Below are positions 23,088-33,954 of a stretch of 64,000 nt of DNA, piece after piece. The stretch is from NCBI GenBank assembly GCA_964017965.1, contig CAXHNV010000004.1, positions 119,771-183,770 of the forward strand, written 5' to 3'. The notes under the pieces were generated by a model. The model was given only the letters and a program-made list of their open reading frames with translations. It ran no database searches and was not told the DNA's origin. Made by a program: the position numbers and the translations under genes. Every line of letters starts with the position of its first letter. The stretch's first letter is position 1. The stretch is from an uncultured Gastranaerophilales bacterium (GTDB lineage Bacteria > Cyanobacteriota > Vampirovibrionia > Gastranaerophilales > Gastranaerophilaceae).

Positions 23088-24260
23088 ATGTCCCCTGCAT
23101 CCGTAACTTTTTCAAGTTTTTCACAGACTATTCCGGTAAAACCTGTTGCACCTACCGTTGAAAAGAAACCTTTATCTAAAACAAATGTTTGTGCAGGTTT
23201 AGGTTTGGCTTGCTTAGCTGCTGGCGGAGTTTATATTGCAACAGGAAGAACACAAAACGTAGGAAAAGTATTTGAAAAGGTTAAAAATGCAGATTCTATT
23301 CTGGATGTTTTAAAGAATACAAAACTTTCTAAGGGTAAGTTTAAGGAGCTTTTATTTAAGATAACCGGTGAAGAAGAGGTTAGCGAAAAGTTTATTAAAG
23401 AGGTTACAGCGAACCCTAGAAAAAGCAAAGAAAATGCAGGCATTTTGAAGAAAAAAATCGGCGGTGCGGAAGAATTATTAGATTGGATGATTCAACCAAA
23501 AGGATATCAGGAAGCTTATTATAGACACGCGCATAAGGTTTACGACGGAGCTAGAAAACCCGATGATGTCATAGGAATTTCTCCAAACTGGAATATTTGG
23601 GTTATGAAAAGTAAGTTTGGAGCTGATTTTTCATTTGGGGAACTTCCAAAAGAGATTGAGAATGCTGACCGATATAGAGAAATCTTTGAAACAGGTTTGA
23701 GGAATGCTAATTCCGGAGCACAACACGGAGAGGTTGTATTTGGTGATTACATAGGAGGCGGACTTTCAGGGAAAGCTGTAAGACAATTGAGAATTGGCGA
23801 TAAACAGTACATTTTGAAGTTCCAAAACCCGACATATTGTGAGGATTTGGCAGATAATTTTTCTATGAAATCCGATTCGGCATTTTTAAATGCGCAATTA
23901 GAGCGATATCTGCAAATACATAATTACCAACAGGGACCAAAACTTAGATTTTACGATAACAAGACTCACTCTGCTTTATATGAAATGAGTGAGGGAGTTA
24001 AACCTGATACAAACGGTGTTCATGACATTGTCAGTATCAATCGTCAATTGGGAGATTTGAATGAGTTAGGCGTTTATTATAACGATTTGAACGCGGGTAA
24101 CTTTATGGTTAAGGACGGGCAATTGAGTTTCATCGATTCAGGAGAATCGAGTTATGTGGATTTCTTTAAACCGGGTGTTACGATGTTGCATTTCACGTTA
24201 CCTAATTTAAACGGCAGAGGAATCACTGATTCTGCAGCTGCAATAACTCTGGTAAAATAA
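23088..24260 (+). CDS. Membrane-anchored hypothetical protein with protein-kinase-like C-terminal region
   Basis: One TM (VCAGLGLACLAAGGVYIA). The C-terminus has YILKF, YYNDLNAGNFMV and FIDSGES, which resemble the catalytic-loop and DFG-equivalent segments of Kdo/WaaP/APH-type kinases. Confidence 0.35.
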   Translation: MSPASVTFSSFSQTIPVKPVAPTVEKKPLSKTNVCAGLGLACLAAGGVYIATGRTQNVGKVFEKVKNADSILDVLKNTKLSKGKFKELLFKITGEEEVSEKFIKEVTANPRKSKENAGILKKKIGGAEELLDWMIQPKGYQEAYYRHAHKVYDGARKPDDVIGISPNWNIWVMKSKFGADFSFGELPKEIENADRYREIFETGLRNANSGAQHGEVVFGDYIGGGLSGKAVRQLRIGDKQYILKFQNPTYCEDLADNFSMKSDSAFLNAQLERYLQIHNYQQGPKLRFYDNKTHSALYEMSEGVKPDTNGVHDIVSINRQLGDLNELGVYYNDLNAGNFMVKDGQLSFIDSGESSYVDFFKPGVTMLHFTLPNLNGRGITDSAAAITLVK

Positions 24261-24264
24261 ATAT

Positions 24265-24285
24265 TGTAAATGTAACAATTGTAAC
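24265..24285 (-). promoter_or_regulatory. Cluster of three TGTAA[AC] boxes (irregular spacing)
   Basis: TGTAAA-TGTAAC-aat-TGTAAC, about 100 nt upstream of ORF 24382. The 13-mer TTGTAACGAATTT is identical to 3411-3423. Confidence 0.3.
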
Positions 24286-24381
24286 GAATTTTATTCTCTC
24301 TGCAATTTTGCATAAAACATATCCTTTATATATACAGTAGAAAGAGTATATGATATTGAGCTGCAAAAAGGAGGATATCAA

Positions 24382-25251
24382 ATGAGTTTTGGTGAAATGT
24401 CAGTTACAGGAGCAAGTGCAGTAAACGGAGCGTATTCAGCTAACAGTACAACACGTAGTGTAAGTAGCGAAGAAGCTATGTTTGATTTTTCTGATAAAGG
24501 TGGTAACACTTCAGAAATAGCAAGCGACGGAGGAATGATTACAAGAAACCCTGATGGTTCTATAAAGAGTGTTACCTATGTAAATGAAGACGGAAGTGTT
24601 TATTCTAAGTCTGTATTTAACAGTAATACAGAAACAGTATATTATACAAATGATGAAGGCAAGTTGGCACCATTTGCAGAACACGTATATGATCCGGCAA
24701 CACAGACCGGAACAGCTACACCTTATGTAGACGGGAAGCTTGATACAAGTTATACATTGAAGTATCCAATGGATTATGATGAATCAGGCAAGCCATATTT
24801 AATAGATAAACCAATGCTGCCTGATGAACCGAAAGCAGCTGAACAGCCTTCAGCAACGCCTGCAGCACCAAAAGCATCTACGGTAACACCTTCAGAAGCT
24901 AACGCTAAGTGGGCAAATGTAAAATTTGAACAAGGTATCGGCGGCGGATATGGCAAAGAATATGACGGTTCCGGCAGGATTGCTAATAGAGTTTATACAG
25001 ATAGCGCAGGCAATGTGACTATGTATACAGAATATAGTTATAGACCTGACGGTAGCATAGATAAGACAAGAACTTATTCATTACATAACGGTGAATTCAA
25101 GTTATCTGATGAAGTTACTTATTCAGAAGATAATAAGACTGCCGTAGGACAAGGTTATTCCGTATATAGCGGTGAACCACATCCGGGTAAGATAAATTAT
25201 ACGACTGAAAAAGTCGGTAATGAACTACAACTGGTATTTAAAGCAGATTAG
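24382..25251 (+). CDS. Hypothetical protein with Tyr/Asp/Gly/Thr-rich repeats
   Basis: AGGAGGA RBS. Repeated segments like TYVNEDGSVYSKSVF / YYTNDEGK / YTDSAGNVTMYTEYSYRPDGS and a central Pro/Ala linker. No signal peptide. Confidence 0.4.
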   Translation: MSFGEMSVTGASAVNGAYSANSTTRSVSSEEAMFDFSDKGGNTSEIASDGGMITRNPDGSIKSVTYVNEDGSVYSKSVFNSNTETVYYTNDEGKLAPFAEHVYDPATQTGTATPYVDGKLDTSYTLKYPMDYDESGKPYLIDKPMLPDEPKAAEQPSATPAAPKASTVTPSEANAKWANVKFEQGIGGGYGKEYDGSGRIANRVYTDSAGNVTMYTEYSYRPDGSIDKTRTYSLHNGEFKLSDEVTYSEDNKTAVGQGYSVYSGEPHPGKINYTTEKVGNELQLVFKAD

Positions 25252-25269
25252 ACAGAATAATCAAATATC

Positions 25270-25299
25270 AAAAAGAGGTTTAGAAAGTTCTAAACCTCT
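25270..25299. terminator. Hairpin between ORF 24382..25251 and tRNA-fMet (terminator, mainly for the minus strand)
   Basis: 11-12-bp stem AGAGGTTTAGA/TCTAAACCTCT. A T-run follows only on the minus strand. Confidence 0.55.
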
Positions 25300-25306
25300 T
25301 CTCAAA

Positions 25307-25383
<77 letters not shown>

Positions 25384-25402
25384 TTAGATTGTCTGTACCT
25401 CT

Positions 25403-25430
25403 ATTATGCTCCGTAAAAATAAAAAATCAA
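25403..25430 (-). promoter_or_regulatory. Sigma-70-type promoter for tRNA-fMet
   Basis: Minus strand TTGATT, 16-nt spacer, CATAAT, ending about 20 nt upstream of the tRNA 5' end. Confidence 0.45.
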
Positions 25431-25504
25431 GTACTCTTAATTTTATGTGAATAATATTTTATAAATTATATTCGCTCATTTTATATCAAATACGGAAGTA
25501 AAAC

Positions 25505-25594: not shown

Positions 25595-26416
25595 ATGAGA
25601 ATAGAGTACTTAAAGTATGAAAGGGATAAAGTGGATATTGTAACCTTAAAACTATTGCTTATCTTTGCACCAGGTTTAATAGGAATGACAATTTATAATC
25701 ATTTGGTATGCAAAGCAAAACAGTCTTTTGAGTATTTCATTGTTTACTCTATACTGTTTGGTATTGTTAGTTACGCAAGTGTAAATATCCTTGTCAAAGC
25801 AATAAATCTAATAATTAAGTATTTTCCTAAAAATCCTATACCTGTATTTGATTTTAGTCAGTTTTTTAATATTATAAAAACTTCTCAACCAGATTTTTCA
25901 GTATCACTTTTGCACTTTTGGTTAACTTGTTTGACTGCGGTCTTATTATCGCTATTTTTTACTGTTTTTATCAACAAGTGTTGGTTGTATAAGGTATTAA
26001 ATTTTCTCAAAATAAGTAACCGAGATAGTGCTTTTCAAGTCTGGAATAAAATTTTTGGTGATGAAACTAACGATAATTGGGTCATGGTTATTGATTATAA
26101 AAATAATAAAATCTACGATGGACGTTTGTATCATCATTCTGATTATTCAGAAGAAAACGAGATATTTCTTAAAGGTGTAATTATTTACGATTTGTCTACC
26201 AAAAAAGAACTAGAACGCTGTAACGGTTTATATATATCACGAGCAGACAAAGAAACTACATTAATTGTTCCGAAAGCAGATGCTTCGGATGATTTTTTAG
26301 ATAGGGAATGTTATTATTCAGATGAAAATGACATAGAAGAAATTAAGATAGAAGAAGAAAAAAGAGGAGTATTCACAACATGGCTGAAAAAGATAAAAAA
26401 GATTTTCAAAGTTTAA
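25595..26416 (+). CDS. Hypothetical multi-pass membrane protein with soluble acidic C-terminal domain
   Basis: About 4 hydrophobic spans in the first 130 aa, then WVMVIDYKNNKIYDGRLYHHS...IFLKGVIIYD (a small beta-rich domain) and an acidic tail. Very AT-rich codon usage. Confidence 0.45.
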   Translation: MRIEYLKYERDKVDIVTLKLLLIFAPGLIGMTIYNHLVCKAKQSFEYFIVYSILFGIVSYASVNILVKAINLIIKYFPKNPIPVFDFSQFFNIIKTSQPDFSVSLLHFWLTCLTAVLLSLFFTVFINKCWLYKVLNFLKISNRDSAFQVWNKIFGDETNDNWVMVIDYKNNKIYDGRLYHHSDYSEENEIFLKGVIIYDLSTKKELERCNGLYISRADKETTLIVPKADASDDFLDRECYYSDENDIEEIKIEEEKRGVFTTWLKKIKKIFKV

Positions 26417-26484
26417 ATGAGTCACAAAAACCATCTCAAAATAAGAAAACTAAACCTGCTGAAAAACCAAAAACTAATAGATAG
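26380..26484 (+). CDS. Micro-ORF 1 (34 aa, Lys/Pro-rich)
   Basis: MAEKDKKDFQSLNESQKPSQNKKTKPAEKPKTNR. AGAGGAG lies 10 nt upstream of the ATG. It overlaps the 3' end of ORF 25595..26416 in another frame. Below the size cutoff of the ORF track. Confidence 0.4.
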   Translation: MAEKDKKDFQSLNESQKPSQNKKTKPAEKPKTNR

Positions 26485-26495
26485 AAAGGAAATTT

Positions 26496-26606
26496 ATGTC
26501 AAACAAACAACAAAGTATGAAAGGAAAAACCTTAACAACTTGCCAAGATTCGCAAAAACCTGCGACAAATGTTAAAACTCAACCACCAGTTAAACCTAAA
26601 AAATAG
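26496..26606 (+). CDS. Micro-ORF 2 (36 aa, Lys/Pro-rich)
   Basis: MSNKQQSMKGKTLTTCQDSQKPATNVKTQPPVKPKK. AAAGGA RBS about 6 nt upstream. Confidence 0.4.
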   Translation: MSNKQQSMKGKTLTTCQDSQKPATNVKTQPPVKPKK

Positions 26607-26621
26607 TAGAGAGGGTATAGA

Positions 26622-26717
26622 ATGGATAAGAAAGAGTATATAGCTAGCAATTCTCAATCGCCACAAAACAAAGCAAAGAGCAACCCTCCTATTAAACCTA
26701 TTATTATAAAAAATGAG
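26622..26717 (+). CDS. Micro-ORF 3 (31 aa, Lys/Pro-rich)
   Basis: MDKKEYIASNSQSPQNKAKSNPPIKPNYYKK. GAGAGGG RBS upstream. Its stop overlaps the next ATG (ATGA). Confidence 0.35.
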
Positions 26718-26760
26718 CAAGGAAATAAACATGAACACAAAAATTAGAATAAATAATAAA

Positions 26761-26835
26761 GGAGATGAAAAAAGGTCACAGTCACCGGCAATAAAAATAA
26801 AAACTGCACCTCCAGAAAAACCAAAAACAAAATAA
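26761..26835 (+). pseudogene. Fourth copy of the Lys/Pro-rich unit, no in-frame start
   Basis: The frame encodes GDEKRSQSPAIKIKTAPPEKPKTK but opens directly after a TAA. The ATG at 26714 is in a different frame (MSKEINMNTKIRINNKEMKKGHSHRQ). Either frameshifted or decayed. Confidence 0.25.
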
Positions 26836-26961
26836 CACCCCATACAGCCCCTCGCATTGTGTGGTATTGTTTCTTGGTCGAAAATAAATGATTTAAGGTA
26901 AGAGTATTCTCGGGCGAATGATGAAATGTTTACAGGCGGGGATGTATAAAGTTACCAAAAA

Positions 26962-28380
26962 TTATTTCTGCTTTAAGTATTCTAGTTCATATTCACAAAA
27001 TTCTGTTGGATTTGTCTTTTTTATTTCAAATGTTACAGACATAGTGTTGCCAATATAATTTTTATCAAGAATAAATTTTACAGTATATAATCCTTTTTCA
27101 AAAGAAAAGTCTTTTGTTTCGGCTATTTTAGAAAGATACTTATCTTTTAAATTTTCACAAAAAATTTTATTATACAAGCTACTACAATATTTTGAGAATA
27201 TCTTTAATTCAATTTTTATATCGTCCGCAAATTGTATGAAATCATATAACATATATGATTGTGGATATTGCTGATTACCTATAACACAATAGTATCTATT
27301 GTTATCTTCAGTATTATAAGAAAGTGCCTGATAATTACCACAGCCCTCAGAATAATTTGCATATTTATATGAGGCTATTGGAAAACCTAATTCAGCCATA
27401 AAACCTAATGATAAATCTAAAGCAATATCTGTATCAGTTTGAGGAGAATCTAAATGTTTATATCTTTGTTTAAATTCTTCAACCATTTTTTCTATATTTA
27501 AATCGACATCATAACCGCCATATGCACTAAGAAAAAAATGTTGCCATAATTTAAGCTGTCCAATATTTACTCCGCATAATTTAAAAGTTTTATAAGCGAA
27601 TTTAAATGAAGAAATGTGTTTATGTAGATTCTCTCGTAATACAGACATGCTTGTTAATATAGTTTCGTATTTAGCATAAACATAAATAACAAAACATATT
27701 GGATATAAAAATAAAGTATACATTATTGGTAACAATAATATTTGCAATGAATGAATATTGAACAATTGCATAGGCTCTTTAAATGCCCAAATGCTACTGT
27801 GTAAAATTATAAAAGCACCTATAAACATTTGAATTCCGTTTAAAAGTTGCTTAGCCTCTTTTACATTTTGAGTTTCTTCTTTAAAATATTCCATATAGGT
27901 ACTTGTAGTACATAATAATGTTACAAAAGCTACTAATACAATTTCAACAAAAATATTAAAATCATGAAAATTGACAAAAAATTCTAAAAAATAAATAGCT
28001 GAAAAATAACCTACAATATTATCTTTATAAATCTTATGAAAATTATCTGTACCAATTGCTTTGCCAAATAATAGTAATCCACCGACAATAGAAAATATAG
28101 TATCTTTTAATAGTGTATTGTCCCAAACATTACACTTAAACATTAAATAAGTTACTGCTATTAAATACATAGTTGGAATTAAAAAGAGTATAGTTAATTT
28201 GGAAAAAAATATCAACTTTAAAACCCGTAGTAGAGCTTTTCTTACATCAAGACTTTTTATCAAACAATATGACAAAAAAGCAATAATTAAAAATGCAATT
28301 GCATACTCCCTATTAGAAATTGAAGTAAAAAATATTTCCATAAAGTGATTATTACAGAAATGATTTATTTTCTCAAGCAT
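26962..28380 (-). CDS. Hypothetical multi-pass membrane protein (472 aa) with soluble C-terminal domain
   Basis: About 7 hydrophobic spans in the N-terminal 250 aa and a Tyr/Cys-containing soluble C-terminal half. No family recognised. Very AT-rich. Confidence 0.45.
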   Translation of the reverse strand: MLEKINHFCNNHFMEIFFTSISNREYAIAFLIIAFLSYCLIKSLDVRKALLRVLKLIFFSKLTILFLIPTMYLIAVTYLMFKCNVWDNTLLKDTIFSIVGGLLLFGKAIGTDNFHKIYKDNIVGYFSAIYFLEFFVNFHDFNIFVEIVLVAFVTLLCTTSTYMEYFKEETQNVKEAKQLLNGIQMFIGAFIILHSSIWAFKEPMQLFNIHSLQILLLPIMYTLFLYPICFVIYVYAKYETILTSMSVLRENLHKHISSFKFAYKTFKLCGVNIGQLKLWQHFFLSAYGGYDVDLNIEKMVEEFKQRYKHLDSPQTDTDIALDLSLGFMAELGFPIASYKYANYSEGCGNYQALSYNTEDNNRYYCVIGNQQYPQSYMLYDFIQFADDIKIELKIFSKYCSSLYNKIFCENLKDKYLSKIAETKDFSFEKGLYTVKFILDKNYIGNTMSVTFEIKKTNPTEFCEYELEYLKQK

Positions 28381-28591: not shown

Positions 28592-28906
28592 ATGAGCGAA
28601 AAAGAATCTTTTGTAATCATTATTGAGAAAAATACCATTACTAAATTACTTAAAATAATCTGCCCCGAAGATAATACGCTGATGAAGAATGAAAATCTTT
28701 CACCTAACGAACACATCCCACTCACAGAACGAGAACGCGAAATACTTAAACTAATAACACAAGGTAAAAATAATAACGAAATAGCGACCGCCCTTGAACT
28801 AAACATACATACAATTAAGTCTGATGTGTGTTCAATTCTTCAAAAACTCGAAGTCACAGACAGAGTTCAAGCTGCAGTCAAAGCCGTTAAACAAAACCTC
28901 GTCTAA
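28592..28906 (+). CDS. LuxR/GerE-type helix-turn-helix protein (solo, short N-terminus)
   Basis: LTEREREILKLITQGKNNNEIATALELNIHTIKSDVCSILQKLEVTDRVQAAV is a canonical GerE HTH. Only about 45 aa precede it. Confidence 0.75.
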   Translation: MSEKESFVIIIEKNTITKLLKIICPEDNTLMKNENLSPNEHIPLTEREREILKLITQGKNNNEIATALELNIHTIKSDVCSILQKLEVTDRVQAAVKAVKQNLV

Positions 28907-28945: not shown

Positions 28946-30697
28946 ATGAAAGGATACAAAATGAGAGATTATGAATTAAACCTATCTATAGAAGAATTAG
29001 AAAAACGTACTCACAAAGATTATTTAGTAACAAAAACAATGCTTAAAGAGGATTCACCTGAATACACCGCACTTGCAGAAGGTGATAAAAAAGCACTTAA
29101 ACACCTCGTTAAAGCTGCTTACATCCTCGAAAAAATAAATAAACAAATCGATAACCCACATAACCTACCGTTCGAAGAATACCTAAACAAAGAAATCTCT
29201 AACGGTAACAAACAAGCAGAATTGACAAAAATCCTCTACGACGCCCAAAAAGGTCTCTGCGCAATCGATAGAGAATCAAACATCATAGAACTTGCAAAAG
29301 GTGTTCACGCAACATTAGGTAAAGGCGCATACCCTGAAGATTTGGGCAAAGAAGAGTTTCAACAAATTGTTCTAAAAATGCTAAAATCAGGCAAAATAGA
29401 AGAACTTCGTACAATGCTTAACCAACGTTCAGTCGTTGAAAGACAAGGTGACGAACTCGTCGCAATCGACTATATTGATAAGTTTAAAGAAGATTTTGCT
29501 CTTATGGCAGATGAACTTGAACAAGCTGCAAAAGTTTCTACAAACAAAGATTTTAACGAATATCTTGAACTGCAAGCAAAAGCTCTAAGAACTCCTGATC
29601 CGATGCTTGATGCCTACGCAGATAAAAAATGGGCAACACTTCAAGATACACCATTGGAATTCACCATAACACGTGAAAACTACTCGGATGAACTAACAGA
29701 AAGTGTTATAGAAAACGAAGAGCTAAAAGCCCTATTAGAACAACACAAAATAACACCAATAGGAAAAGATTTCTTAGGCGGAAGAGTCGGAATAGTAAAC
29801 AAAAAAGGAACCGAAGCTATCCTAAAAGTTAAAGACTTTCTTCCTCTCATGGCAGACAATATGCCGTTCAAAGACGAGTACACCCAAAACATCTCTCCTG
29901 ATAAGGATTCTAAGCAAACAATGGTCGATGTTGACCTTGTAACCGTATCGGGTGATGTCGGAGAGTTCCGCGCAGGTATAACCCTGGCAGAAAATCTTCC
30001 AAACGATGACAAGTTATCATTAACAATTGGCGGCGGTCGTAGAAACGTATACCACAGACAAATACGTCTAATAACAAGCGAAGATTCGAAAAAGAAGCTT
30101 CAAGAACGTCTTGACGCTATCCTAAACAAAGACCAGCACAAATACTACAACGATGAAGCAGACCACTGGTTCACAATAGGTCACGAAAATGCCCACTCTC
30201 TTGGACCAAACTCAGGAACAGAGGCGCTCGGCAAATACAAATCAATCATAGAAGAAAACAAAGCAGACATAACATCACTTGCTATGCTTGATGTGCTTGA
30301 GCAAAACGGAATGTACACAAAAGAAGAAAAAGAACAAATAATTGTAACCTACGCAGCAGATAACATGCTTAAATCTAAACCAACTCTAAGTCAAGCTCAC
30401 AGAGTTCGTTCAGTAATGCAAAACTATTATTTCCTTAAAGAAGGCGCAATAGAAATCTCTGCTGACGGGGTTCTAACAGTTAACATTGAAAAGATGATTC
30501 CGACAGCTCAAAAAATGCTTGAAGAAATCATTCGAATCCAAATCGACGGAGACTTTAACAAAGGCGAAAAATACGTCCTCGAAAACTTCCAATGGACACC
30601 GGAAATGGATTTAATAGCAGAAAAAATAAAAAAAGTCTCAAAATCCCTCAACGGTAAAGTTGAAGAACCTCTGGCAACTGTTCTTCTAAATTCATAA
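28946..30697 (+). CDS. Zinc metallopeptidase, DPP III (M49)-like
   Basis: HENAH (HExxH) followed about 27 residues later by EENKAD, as in bacterial M49-like enzymes. An alternative start at 28961 (MRDYELN) has a better RBS. Confidence 0.55.
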   Translation: MKGYKMRDYELNLSIEELEKRTHKDYLVTKTMLKEDSPEYTALAEGDKKALKHLVKAAYILEKINKQIDNPHNLPFEEYLNKEISNGNKQAELTKILYDAQKGLCAIDRESNIIELAKGVHATLGKGAYPEDLGKEEFQQIVLKMLKSGKIEELRTMLNQRSVVERQGDELVAIDYIDKFKEDFALMADELEQAAKVSTNKDFNEYLELQAKALRTPDPMLDAYADKKWATLQDTPLEFTITRENYSDELTESVIENEELKALLEQHKITPIGKDFLGGRVGIVNKKGTEAILKVKDFLPLMADNMPFKDEYTQNISPDKDSKQTMVDVDLVTVSGDVGEFRAGITLAENLPNDDKLSLTIGGGRRNVYHRQIRLITSEDSKKKLQERLDAILNKDQHKYYNDEADHWFTIGHENAHSLGPNSGTEALGKYKSIIEENKADITSLAMLDVLEQNGMYTKEEKEQIIVTYAADNMLKSKPTLSQAHRVRSVMQNYYFLKEGAIEISADGVLTVNIEKMIPTAQKMLEEIIRIQIDGDFNKGEKYVLENFQWTPEMDLIAEKIKKVSKSLNGKVEEPLATVLLNS

Positions 30698-31206: not shown

Positions 31207-33954
31207 TTATTTTATACGTTTTAGAGAAGAGATAAAGTTGTTACGTTCAACATCACCTTCAACCTTAGTCAAGAAAATCTGACAATCTTTTTCTTCCGCC
31301 TCAATATTAGGAATCTCCTTAACTTCCTGATTATAAAGGTTATAAAGGGTTTTACTTGTTAATGGAAGGTGACTTGCAAGACTGCTCAAAGAAATGTGTC
31401 TCAACACTCCATAGATACCTTTATTTTTGTTAGAAAACTTCGTATAAATTCTCAATGAAGCATCGCGATTTTCAAGGTCAAATCTACCGGCAATATAAGA
31501 ACTCAGTTGAGGTGCTGCTGATTTAATGTTAATTCGTTCAACAACATTATCTTTCATTAATAAATGACCTGATATAGTATTAAATTCGCCTTTTGGAATA
31601 TTTACCAAATCCCAAATAGTAGTCGGAGAAATCATCGCAAGAGGGTTTCTGAATATTGAAGCAATATTCAATACATACTGCAAGAATCCGACTGTACCAA
31701 TAGTACCGTCTTTTATTTCAAACTTAATTTCGCCGTTTAGTTTCAGACTGTTATCTGTATGTAACTCAATTAGTCCGCGTGCTTTACCGCTTATCTCATC
31801 CTTTAGCCCCAGTAAAGATGATGCAACAATATTAGAATCAACATCTTTTACACCGAGTCTTACTTTATAAATATGTTTTTTCAAATCACAGAACACTTTA
31901 CAAGAAGATATACCTTCTGCAAAACCAAATCTATTTGAATTCAATTCCAGAATAGAATTTTCGTTTAATGACATTGTTGCAACCAAATCGTCGATATGAA
32001 TATCATTATAAATCCCTTCATTCATTTTGAAAGAACAGCTTTTTATAATCAGATTAGAAGTATCAAATGTTGGCACAACATCGTCATCATTAGATAAATC
32101 AGCTTTTTGAGTAGTAGCTTCTCCTTGCATATTCATTGATTCAAGCATTTTGCCAATATTAATTTTATCAATTGCAAGATTCAACTTATTTATTACAATA
32201 GGGAATGCGATATTATTAACGAATTCACCGTCGAGATTATATTTAGTTCTTCTATATCTACCATTAGCATTGATATTAATTGTATCGAAATTGGTAGATA
32301 AAGTACCCTTTTCAACATAAATACGTTGAGAAGGAACCCTTATTTTCGAAAGGTTAATATTACCAAAAAGTTTTACACCCTTAGGACCGTCGATTGCTTT
32401 CAGTTTACCGACAACAGTACCGCCTTTGAACAAATCTGCACGTGCAACCATATTCAAAAACTCACTTGGTAAAGGTTCAGAGACTTCAAATCCCATTTCT
32501 TTAAAGTTTATATCTTTTGAAAAATCAATTTTACCTGTTAACTGAAGTATTTTATGATAAATATTTTCTGTATTGTTTTGTTCGGTTATATAGTAATTAA
32601 GTTTTTTCAAATCAAGCATCATATCCTTAATCTGCATATCAGCAAGAAGAATTCTTTGTAATTTATACTTACTCAAGGGTTCTCCGCCAATCAGGATATC
32701 ATTATCAGCATTAACCCAGAATATCCAGCGCATATCTACGACATTATTTAGCATAGATACGTGTAATTTAGTATCTGCATCACTTTTTAATTCAATTGGA
32801 TAACCTACCATTTTAGATAAATAATTTTTCATAAAATCGTTTGATACTTTTGCATTGATATCGACATTTGTATCAAATGTTTTCATATAATCTTTTACAG
32901 TACCGGTAAGTTTAATATCGTTTTTCGGACGCTTGTCATAATGTCCTACAAAATCGTTCAAAAAGATATCGTTATTTGTTATTTTAACGTTACCTTTAGT
33001 AACTGTAAGCGGAATATTATCAATCGGAACAAGACCAAAGTTAACCTTTTTGATACATACATTACCGCTTTGCCCTTTATTATTCATATTAAAATTAAAA
33101 TCAAAAAGCCCCTTAATATCAGAGAAGAATGCTAACAGCTCTGAACCGTTCGGGATAAGGATATTTGATTCAATAATATCAACAACATTTTCGACTTTAA
33201 AATCATTAGAAAATACGTCAATATTAAACCTGTTACGTTTATCCATTTTAGCGTTTATATTGACAATAGATTCGTTTAATCTTAACTTACAATTATCGAC
33301 AACAAGCTTATCTCTTTCGATATAAACGTTATTATCATCATCAAACACAACATTTATAATATGTTTATCTTTTATGACGTTTGTTGCAAGATAAAAGTGT
33401 AAATAATTCTTTTTCTTAGATTTTGCAAGGTAGATATCATCAATCCAAACATCGTATAAAACACCGTTTGCATCGTATAAGATACGAACATCATCGACAT
33501 CAATATCAGCATTAAAGAAGCCAAATTCCCAGTCACAAGGCTGAGGTTCTTTCTTTTCACCGGCAGGGAATAAACTAATAAGCTTCGTTGCATCAACGAA
33601 GAACTTAGGGGACTTTAATGTCCTTAATTCTACACGTTTATTAAAAAGTTTTGCAAAAGACAAAGCAACGTCACAATCATCAAGACGTAAATAGTTTTGA
33701 TTATCTTTATCAATAGAAATTTTATCAACAGAGAATTCTATTATCGGAGACAGTTTAGTTTTCAATACAGGTTTTTCAATCGTCAAGGACGCATTTGTAA
33801 GCTTGTGAAACTCGTTTTTAACAATATTCTGTACAATTTCTGACGATACAGCTTTTGGCAGCAAAAACAAGTATAAAAACAAAGCTACAAAAACTAAACC
33901 GAACACAAATAATCCGATAAATAAATTTATTTTATTATTCTTAGACATTTTCAT
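31207..33954 (-). CDS. AsmA/TamB-like large envelope protein
   Basis: Single N-terminal TM anchor (INLFIGLFVFGLVFVALFLYLFLL) followed by about 880 aa of beta-rich Asn/Lys/Ile/Asp sequence, as in AsmA-family outer-membrane biogenesis proteins. Confidence 0.45.
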   Translation of the reverse strand: MKMSKNNKINLFIGLFVFGLVFVALFLYLFLLPKAVSSEIVQNIVKNEFHKLTNASLTIEKPVLKTKLSPIIEFSVDKISIDKDNQNYLRLDDCDVALSFAKLFNKRVELRTLKSPKFFVDATKLISLFPAGEKKEPQPCDWEFGFFNADIDVDDVRILYDANGVLYDVWIDDIYLAKSKKKNYLHFYLATNVIKDKHIINVVFDDDNNVYIERDKLVVDNCKLRLNESIVNINAKMDKRNRFNIDVFSNDFKVENVVDIIESNILIPNGSELLAFFSDIKGLFDFNFNMNNKGQSGNVCIKKVNFGLVPIDNIPLTVTKGNVKITNNDIFLNDFVGHYDKRPKNDIKLTGTVKDYMKTFDTNVDINAKVSNDFMKNYLSKMVGYPIELKSDADTKLHVSMLNNVVDMRWIFWVNADNDILIGGEPLSKYKLQRILLADMQIKDMMLDLKKLNYYITEQNNTENIYHKILQLTGKIDFSKDINFKEMGFEVSEPLPSEFLNMVARADLFKGGTVVGKLKAIDGPKGVKLFGNINLSKIRVPSQRIYVEKGTLSTNFDTININANGRYRRTKYNLDGEFVNNIAFPIVINKLNLAIDKINIGKMLESMNMQGEATTQKADLSNDDDVVPTFDTSNLIIKSCSFKMNEGIYNDIHIDDLVATMSLNENSILELNSNRFGFAEGISSCKVFCDLKKHIYKVRLGVKDVDSNIVASSLLGLKDEISGKARGLIELHTDNSLKLNGEIKFEIKDGTIGTVGFLQYVLNIASIFRNPLAMISPTTIWDLVNIPKGEFNTISGHLLMKDNVVERINIKSAAPQLSSYIAGRFDLENRDASLRIYTKFSNKNKGIYGVLRHISLSSLASHLPLTSKTLYNLYNQEVKEIPNIEAEEKDCQIFLTKVEGDVERNNFISSLKRIK

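Follow-up and report, generated by a model that had tools for sequence, protein, structure and literature searches.

The closest described counterpart of the locus presented here comes from Pseudomonas stutzeri, in which digest-free proteomics detected three novel proline-rich small proteins encoded by short open reading frames (SEPs), with 44–114 peptide-spectrum matches each (PMC10433244, Anal Chem 2023). The genes for SEP1 (36 aa), SEP5 (47 aa) and SEP2 (41 aa) directly follow the DUF6338 gene Pstu14405_RS12030, one behind the other, and the proteins were described as "not conserved beyond" P. stutzeri, i.e., as species-specific and possibly the products of de novo genes (PMC10433244). Here we analyzed a 64,000-nt stretch of DNA from an uncultured Gastranaerophilales bacterium (contig CAXHNV010000004.1; the whole stretch is called the window), in which the gene of a putative, divergent DUF6338 membrane protein is followed by four micro-open reading frames (micro-ORFs), P1–P4. 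We put the probability that P1–P4 are real genes forming a conserved module with DUF6338 at about 90%.

The two loci share their architecture: a DUF6338 gene comes first, followed by tandem, close or overlapping ORFs on the same strand, which encode hydrophilic, basic, proline-containing products. P1–P4 also sit where the SEPs do, each being shorter than 50 aa, on the same strand as the DUF6338 gene and overlapping or downstream of it. There are, however, three ORFs of 36–47 aa in P. stutzeri, with products that end in ...PPPPKK or similar and are proven by mass spectrometry (MS), whereas the window holds four, backed by evolutionary evidence. The SEPs contain 23–28% proline, while the window peptides are Lys-rich with 9–12% proline; the hosts are a gammaproteobacterium and a member of the Melainabacteria, respectively, and sequence homology between the two sets is not demonstrable. 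A literature search on DUF6338 returned PMC10433244 as the single find, a search on tandem proline-rich small-protein operons gave nothing relevant beyond that paper, and searches on Sm-like transmembrane defense proteins found nothing. A DUF6338 gene followed by tandem proline-rich small proteins has been described once, in one species, with its generality unrecognized; the window adds a Lys-rich four-copy variant from Melainabacteria.

P1–P4 are four small genes in one operon

An earlier note, made from the letters of this DNA alone, had proposed four paralogous micro-ORFs on one strand at 26380–26835 (Table 1), and this proposal holds. The four products share an ungapped core of 16–17 residues, S-Q-[KS]-P-x2-[NK]-x-K-[TS]-x-P-[AP]-x-K-P. 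Back-translated, the core pattern has exactly 4 matches in the 64-kb window, at 26422, 26550, 26652 and 26776 (spacings of 128, 102 and 124 nt), and 0 in each of 100 dinucleotide-preserving shuffles, a test that is circular because these four copies themselves served to define the pattern. Tandem Repeats Finder (TRF) detected no DNA-level tandem repeat at P1–P4. As the paralogy exists at the peptide level only, the units are old paralogues and not a recent DNA repeat.

Table 1. Features of the cassette and its immediate surroundings, in window coordinates
Feature	Position	Strand	Remarks
tRNA-Met (CAT)	25307–25383	−	Directly 5' of the cassette; shared stretch 25292–25444
DUF6338-family membrane protein gene (putative, divergent)	25595–26416	+	273 aa; sub-threshold Pfam match, profile search, AlphaFold2 model
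P1 micro-ORF	26380–26484	+	34 aa, MAEKDKKDFQSLNESQKPSQNKKTKPAEKPKTNR
A_AAA_AAG slippery heptamer, dnaX-type	26395–26401	+	Zero frame of the DUF6338 gene; within the part shared with P1
P2 micro-ORF	26496–26606	+	36 aa, MSNKQQSMKGKTLTTCQDSQKPATNVKTQPPVKPKK
P3 micro-ORF	26622–26747	+	41 aa, MDKKEYIASNSQSPQNKAKSNPPIKPIIIKNEQGNKHEHKN
P4 micro-ORF	26731–26835	+	34 aa, MNTKIRINNKGDEKRSQSPAIKIKTAPPEKPKTK
Weak hairpin, possible operon terminator	26840–26864	+	Directly 3' of the P4 stop

The genes are tightly packed. P1, in the −1 frame, overlaps the stop of the upstream gene by 37 nt, confirming the overlap noticed before; gaps of 11 nt and 15 nt separate P1 from P2 and P2 from P3, and P3 and P4 overlap by 17 nt, with the tail of P3 covering the ribosome-binding site (RBS) and start of P4. 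An RBS of their own had been claimed for P1–P3. A Shine–Dalgarno (SD) sequence of the GGAG/AGGA type indeed lies 6–10 nt 5' of each of these starts, and of P4 too; that of P1, GGAG 10 nt 5' of the ATG, is kept in relatives. Two details of the earlier note had to be corrected. The P3 tail "...KPNYYKK" with a stop overlapping the next ATG (ATGA) was a misreading: P3 ends in ...NPPIKPIIIKNEQGNKHEHKN at the TAG stop codon 26745–26747. The fourth copy, said to have no in-frame start, has ATGs at 26713 and 26731. The latter bears the RBS and is the start picked by gene callers in sister contigs; the resulting 34-aa form is called in locus L002 (L numbers denote loci, four-digit P numbers proteins) and was also found in the protein collection, while the ATG further 5' would give 40 aa.

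P1–P4 carry a net charge of +4 to +7, have a hydrophobic fraction of 0.15–0.21 and contain 0–1 Arg. The earlier description as "proline-rich" overstates a modest content of three or four prolines each, 9–12% of residues, which is above what is typical. Lys codons are favored by the AT-rich genome. P1–P4 are likely disordered, basic, Lys/Pro-rich small proteins, without a meaningful match in PADLOC, Pfam or NCBIfam.

Conservation at the peptide level in relatives, which the earlier note had named as the decisive test of its claim, is seen. Codon alignments of the window with L006, L012, L013 and L005 gave ratios of non-synonymous to synonymous divergence (dN/dS) of 0.06–0.42 over all four ORFs at a synonymous divergence (pS) of 0.29–0.86. 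The individual ranges were 0.07–0.42 for P1, 0.08–0.42 for P2, 0.06–0.40 for P3 where synonymous sites are unsaturated, and 0.16–0.37 for P4. Frames are kept in L005, L006, L009, L011, L012 and L013, the SD sequences are conserved in relatives, and the 16-aa core is 86–93% identical between orthologues compared with 54–73% for its flanks. P1 is called by gene callers in sister contigs, and public data contain 60 contigs with the exact P2 peptide. For the upstream 273-aa protein there are just six clusters of close homologues (66–93% identity); contigs of all six carry the micro-ORFs, most of them called independently by gene callers. The second named test concerned the antisense ORF 26532–26843 (103 aa) as the real gene. 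No relative keeps it open over more than 85 aa, and it is a by-product of a sense strand that is 49% A, which leaves the antisense strand stop-poor. Because the frames are kept, dN/dS is well below 1 and the antisense ORF is broken in relatives, we regard P1–P4 as coding; the comparative data argue that they are four real, separately translated paralogous genes under purifying selection.

Natural variants occur in the group. P3 is frameshifted and fused to P4 in L007, L008 and L010, P4 is frameshifted in L001, and P1 starts with TTG in L013. An in-frame deletion fuses P3 and P4 into a 59-aa protein with two cores (P0247; L018 and L054), which is found on 55 contigs and therefore represents a natural allele that is common, not a fault of assembly.

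We also scanned viral contigs and metagenomes with the strict back-translated core pattern. There were 0 matches in the viral contigs and 41 matching loci in the metagenomes, of which only L014, L018, L038 and L054 are true, all of them close relatives. Most of the remaining 37, which we rejected, repeat one conserved soil-metagenome sequence translated as "SREPSALHPSAS...". In the soil contigs of L015–L053, most chance matches are one highly conserved sequence translating to "SREPSALHPSASTRLQATSRHHEEESQLPFRSSKTFPPRKPSTSIP". It probably belongs to a soil lineage as a conserved element, either non-coding or rRNA-like, and is unrelated to P1–P4.

The window and its relatives are homologous at the DNA level from ~25481 to ~26887, i.e., over the 273-aa gene and P1–P4. 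To the right, the window has a 472-aa membrane ORF, L005 a faintly TIR-like protein followed by GmrSD, L012 an XRE-type regulator (with a reverse transcriptase on the left, upstream side) and L006 a pyridine-nucleotide oxidoreductase neighborhood. An all-against-all BLASTP comparison of the neighbors revealed no third conserved component; the 472-aa ORF was considered as one and rejected, having no homologue at the other loci. As the right flank varies by locus and a third component is lacking, the upstream gene is the only conserved partner, and the earlier picture of a peptide set between two membrane proteins applies to its upstream side only. The DUF6338 gene and P1–P4 (25595–26835) form one compact, translationally coupled operon, and this operon is the conserved unit.

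DUF6338 proteins and their small partners

The 273-aa protein matches the Pfam family DUF6338 (PF19865) over 183 of 205 profile positions with 23.6 bits (E=4.5e-5), below the gathering threshold of 26.5 bits. An exhaustive profile search with the window family collected 637 relatives at E<1e-3, typically of 205–240 aa, including some that pass the Pfam gathering score (e.g., P0059 and P0139). A further search gave relatives of which some are named "DUF6338 family protein" by NCBI, and these align end to end. This full-length homology to bona fide members identifies it, at the level of sequence, as a divergent DUF6338 protein. An AlphaFold2 model computed from 7 aligned sequences was unusable (predicted local distance difference test score, pLDDT, of 46), and a rerun with 68 sequences reached a pLDDT of 80.2. 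The latter model predicts three transmembrane (TM) helices (residues ~15–37, 45–74 and 105–127), a barrel at ~146–225 and a lineage-specific amphipathic helix at the C terminus. The barrel, predicted as an N-terminal helix followed by five bent strands, has the helix and strongly bent five-stranded sheet that characterize the Sm/LSm fold, and Foldseek searches of the PDB placed LSm/Sm proteins at the top with target-normalized TM-scores of 0.6–0.8, including 6qw6_64, 3swn_A and 5mkl at probability 1.0 as well as 6f9w, the LSm domain of LSM14 with a bound 4E-T peptide. DUF6338 thus resembles Sm/LSm proteins in the predicted fold of residues ~146–225, and the LSm domains of LSM14 and EDC3 are peptide-binding. 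It differs from them in that three TM helices are joined to the domain and that sequence similarity to PDB entries is absent; the DUF6338 profile found no match among PDB sequences. According to the positive-inside rule, the Lys-rich loops after TM1 and TM3 predict a cytoplasmic location for the Sm-like domain. The invariant or near-invariant residues of the family include W150, W162, D167, G176, S182, E189 and Y213.

Among viral structures, only one resembles the whole DUF6338 model, an uncharacterized 197-aa protein of Siphoviridae sp. ct96x5 (BFVD A0A8S5PTE5; E=4.9e-5, 225 aligned columns), which suggests occasional carriage by gut phages or prophages. A tblastn search of phage genomes with DUF6338 gave no match, and a profile scan of genome contigs with the DUF6338 alignment gave no confirmed relative.

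Small partners accompany DUF6338 genes far beyond the window and in more than one phylum. The lineages opened were the window group, L005, L144, L135, L136, L139, L142, L146–L152, L153 and L155; L135, L136 (Lentisphaerota), L139, L142, L144, L153 and L155 come from metagenomes or metagenome-assembled genomes, and the plasmid loci from Bacillus cereus, Acidiphilium, Methylobacterium, Agrobacterium, Vibrio, Pantoea and Citrobacter. In 15 of 15 lineages, one to four basic, proline-rich ORFs of 33–91 aa overlap or directly follow the DUF6338 stop on the same strand, several of them unannotated or uncalled, and the published P. stutzeri operon (PMC10433244) provides a further case beyond the 15 read from sequence. 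When a strict criterion was applied to 13 lineages (28–95 aa, at least 14% Pro, start between −75 and +60 nt from the stop), 9 of 13 DUF6338 genes had such a partner compared with 2 of 119 other long ORFs at the same loci (Fisher p=1.5e-9). The four misses, among them P1 of the window (9% Pro), fail the proline cut-off only.

PPx or PPPPP stretches occur in nearly all partner peptides. Most single-copy peptides show the motif [LI]-[NT]-E-G-x2-[KR]-K-G-G-[VL]-N, behind which come a run of prolines and often GQG, as in MSKNKGTQSNPPKPLSEGIEKKGGVNPRPTTAPPPPPTGQGGKKK of L153. These KKGGVN-type peptides ([LI]NEG..KKGGVN..PPPPP.GQG; e.g., B. cereus pAH187_45, ACJ82892.1, and Acidiphilium WP_155856286.1) resemble the window peptides in position, strand, size (40–72 aa) and a basic, proline-rich C-terminal half, and P1 has "LNES" where they have "LNEG". 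They are single-copy, however, and carry a KKGG-N box and long polyproline runs, while the window peptides have neither box nor runs. A closer match was found in L144, where a DUF6338 protein 40% identical to that of the window is followed by three tandem peptides of the type SQKPA..K[KR]PAP.QP.KP.K; one of them, L144b, scores 28.4 bits against the hidden Markov model (HMM) of the window group, a score reached by 0 of 1000 shuffles. Searched against 5.8 billion proteins, the window-type profile collected 35 clusters, and those inspected belong to the window lineage or L144.

Three separate lineages, Gastranaerophilales, L144 and P. stutzeri, show tandem arrays amplified to three or four copies. 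Within the window group, every paralogue can be paired with a specific orthologue in relatives, and in L144 and P. stutzeri the copies are more alike mutually than they are to copies elsewhere. This similarity within lineages suggests independent amplifications.

The genomic settings of the module are varied. In L136 (4001–4802), a Lentisphaerota-type contig, only 10 nt separate the start of the DUF6338 gene from the preceding hsdS of a type I restriction–modification operon on the same strand, with which it may be co-transcribed, and TIR/SEFIR and GmrSD genes come next. The module is adjoined by TIR genes in L139 and L152, by a caspase-like peptidase and a nuclease in L146 and L152, by an ADP-ribosyltransferase and a RES-domain protein in L151, by relaxases or insertion sequence elements in L147 and L149, and by ImmA/XRE pairs in L155. 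On a Vibrio plasmid (L150; Vibrio sp. SCSIO 43009, NZ_CP071844.1, 75623–76415), DUF6338 and a 44-aa partner lie between two DUF3265 mini-ORFs, which we take to be typical of Vibrio integron attC repeats, with CcdAB and HigB cassettes around the pair. We interpret this array as an integron cassette array, and the DUF3265 flanks together with the CcdAB and HigB cassettes suggest that the pair moves as a single integron cassette. Closer to the window, a tRNA-like stretch, ~79–84% identical, precedes the cassette in L005, L006, L007, L009 and L014. An integrase and a resolvase lie on its far (3') side in L009, left of the cassette, and tRNA-Met appears on that account to be an integration hotspot beside the module. 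Such settings are the hallmark of an accessory module that is self-contained and moves along with mobile DNA and defense islands. They are not evidence of a defense function as such.

Several observations weigh against our reading of the module, including the antitoxin-like role proposed below. The same tRNA-Met-like neighbor is present in those Gastranaerophilales contigs that reach that far, a shared position that looks chromosomal rather than freshly mobile, and neither the DUF6338 protein nor the peptides match PADLOC. Of more than 600 family representatives, we examined the loci of only a few, and these were not chosen at random. Each window peptide has only three or four prolines, HMMs of the remote peptides score P1–P4 no better than composition-matched shuffles, and the window-group HMM in turn scores the SEPs and the KKGGVN/PPPP peptides no better than shuffles. 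Without demonstrable sequence homology beyond L144, the notion of a "same partner" rests on position, size and composition. What is conserved in the partnership with DUF6338 is position and composition, peptide homology being demonstrable only to L144. The window peptides are, by positional and compositional likeness, a lineage-specific amplified version of a proline-rich DUF6338-partner microprotein, and the survey suggests that the partnership is a family-wide rule.

Possible roles of the peptides

For the role of the peptides we tentatively favor a regulatory ligand akin to the antitoxin of a toxin–antitoxin (TA) pair, a reading to which we give somewhat less than even odds. P1–P4 would remain in the cytoplasm, where the Sm/LSm-like barrel of DUF6338, a domain with invariant Trp and Tyr residues, would receive their conserved proline-containing core as a polyproline-type ligand in extended form. 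LSm domains that bind short linear peptides, such as that of LSM14, and the proline-rich tails fused to a few family members (P0081, P0139 and P0183) fit this reading. The peptides would thereby restrain or tune the membrane protein, similar to a labile antitoxin or regulator in a mobile TA-like or abortive-infection-like accessory module, and several copies could raise the dosage or diversify the ligand. Like type II TA and abortive-infection modules, the DUF6338 module is a compact two-component operon of overlapping, coupled genes, its small partner is likely disordered, and its distribution is patchy, on plasmids, in a likely integron array and in restriction–modification, TIR, caspase and TA neighborhoods. 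It differs from them in that it has no homology to known toxins or antitoxins, its small partner lacks a DNA-binding domain and is multi-copy. A more far-reaching version, in which DUF6338 proteins and their microproteins constitute a so far unrecognized pan-bacterial two-component system of a new TA or anti-phage type, with a membrane-tethered Sm-like ring gated by polyproline micro-ligands and a ligand gene amplified independently in at least three lineages, is somewhat less likely.

The fold match to Sm/LSm proteins also accommodates a module centered on RNA, in which the Sm/LSm-like domains form a membrane-tethered RNA-binding ring and the polycationic peptides act as nucleic-acid-binding co-factors, in the manner of histone-H1 tails or RNA chaperones, instead of protein ligands. 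The peptide charge of +4 to +7 and the Lys/Pro-rich composition, reminiscent of H1-type tails, would suit such a role. The remote partners from GC-rich lineages are, however, dominated by Pro and Gly, not Lys, which indicates that the conserved property is proline content and not high positive charge, and we consider this explanation unlikely.

The earlier note had pointed to a produced or exported peptide set. In this reading, P1–P4 would be secreted antimicrobial or signaling peptides or precursors resembling ribosomally synthesized and post-translationally modified peptides (RiPPs), and DUF6338 would be the exporter or immunity protein. The presence of multiple cationic, proline-containing peptides beside a membrane protein fits this idea, and an antimicrobial role was also raised for the proline-rich SEPs, although these were found in samples without membrane fractions (PMC10433244). 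Like proline-rich antimicrobial peptides (PrAMPs; oncocin, Bac7, apidaecin), P1–P4 are short, cationic and proline-containing, but PrAMPs are Arg/Pro-rich with PRP repeats and derive from secreted animal precursors, whereas P1–P4 are Lys-rich with few prolines, lack an export signal and are tied to one partner in the genome. No signal peptide, hydrophobic segment or PRP-type motif was found in the P1–P4 sequences. The "KKGG" of the remote peptides may loosely recall a double-glycine leader, but GG is absent from the window peptides. No peptidase, ABC exporter or modifying enzyme is conserved beside the module at any examined locus, which leaves the RiPP-like variant unsupported; a cytoplasmic location is predicted for the soluble, conserved domain of DUF6338, and a three-TM protein with an Sm domain is not a known transporter architecture. 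Taken together, export is improbable.

The act of translation might itself matter: the ORFs with PP motifs would be slow and EF-P-dependent, and their translation could report translational capacity or set the stability or stoichiometry of the operon mRNA. The PPx and PPPPP stretches of nearly all partners and the tight translational coupling with its overlaps are compatible with this. Purifying selection acts, however, across the whole 16-aa core, including the non-proline residues SQ, K and T, the P. stutzeri peptides are abundant and stable enough to be seen by MS, and the only large gene that is conserved precedes the ORFs instead of following them. These points make the explanation very unlikely.

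We give still less credit to the idea that P1 is mainly a C-terminal extension of DUF6338 made by −1 programmed frameshifting, with free peptides as a secondary product. A canonical dnaX-type heptamer lies in the right frame within the overlap (Table 1), and a −1 slip there would fuse the C-terminal 28 residues of P1, including the core, to DUF6338 with the junction ...WLKKIKKDFQSLNESQK. The heptamer is conserved in L006, L012 and L013 and reads A_AAA_AAC in L005; no stimulatory element was identified. In a few family members (P0081, P0139 and P0183), moreover, a proline-rich tail is fused in frame. P1 nevertheless has its own conserved start (ATG, or TTG in L013) and SD sequence, runs of A are expected by chance in a region of 49% A, six of the eight remote loci examined need a +1 rather than a −1 shift and several have no slippery site, and P2–P4 are left unexplained.

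The weakest alternative, that P1–P4 are non-coding, being either an A-rich spacer with chance ORFs or the reverse of a true antisense gene, could appeal to the base composition that makes the antisense strand stop-poor and to the absence of a TRF repeat, but is effectively refuted by the low dN/dS of all four sense ORFs at high synonymous divergence, the broken antisense frame in all relatives and the conserved SD sequences.

Surroundings of the cassette and implications

The possible terminator behind P4 is a weak candidate, its fold z-score being only −0.22, compared with a range of −0.2 to −1.5 among relatives; the sequence of the hairpin block is conserved, with a cleaner stem and T-run in L012 and L013. 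Right of the cassette, at 26901–26967, lies a non-coding block of ~60 nt, ...GAGAGTATTCTCGGGCGAATGATGAAATGTTTTAGGGTGGTGAGGTATAAAGTTACC..., that recurs at ~80% identity in L006 (6325–6394), L012 (6288–6361), L013 (1639–1705) and L005 (5122–5172). In L005 it is 3.4 kb off, past two inserted genes, as if a variable insertion slot had its distal border at this block. The block gave no Rfam match and no covarying structure.

The window derives from a Candidatus Gastranaerophilales (Melainabacteria) chromosome; its LeuS shares 93% identity with that of MAG HUM_9, and genes for DnaB, MetK and PheT are found nearby. Around the cassette, ORFs of 390, 289, 472, 583 and 915 aa, located at 23088–25251, 26962–28380 (minus strand), 28946–30697 and 31207–33954 (minus strand), have no Pfam match, and a 104-aa LuxR/GerE-type regulator (28592–28906) precedes the 583-aa ORF. 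This region looks like a patch of lineage-specific genes.

Our results move four unannotated ORFs of fewer than 45 aa from "possible" to "under purifying selection" and link them to a general rule, by which small proline-rich proteins, one or several, go together with a DUF6338 membrane protein. They suggest that the P. stutzeri SEPs are not species-specific but represent a microprotein partner that is widespread and for the most part unannotated. DUF6338, a family of more than 600 representative clusters, thereby gains a testable hypothesis, that of an Sm-like cytoplasmic domain with a polyproline ligand, and P. stutzeri offers a culturable model for a module of uncultured gut Melainabacteria.

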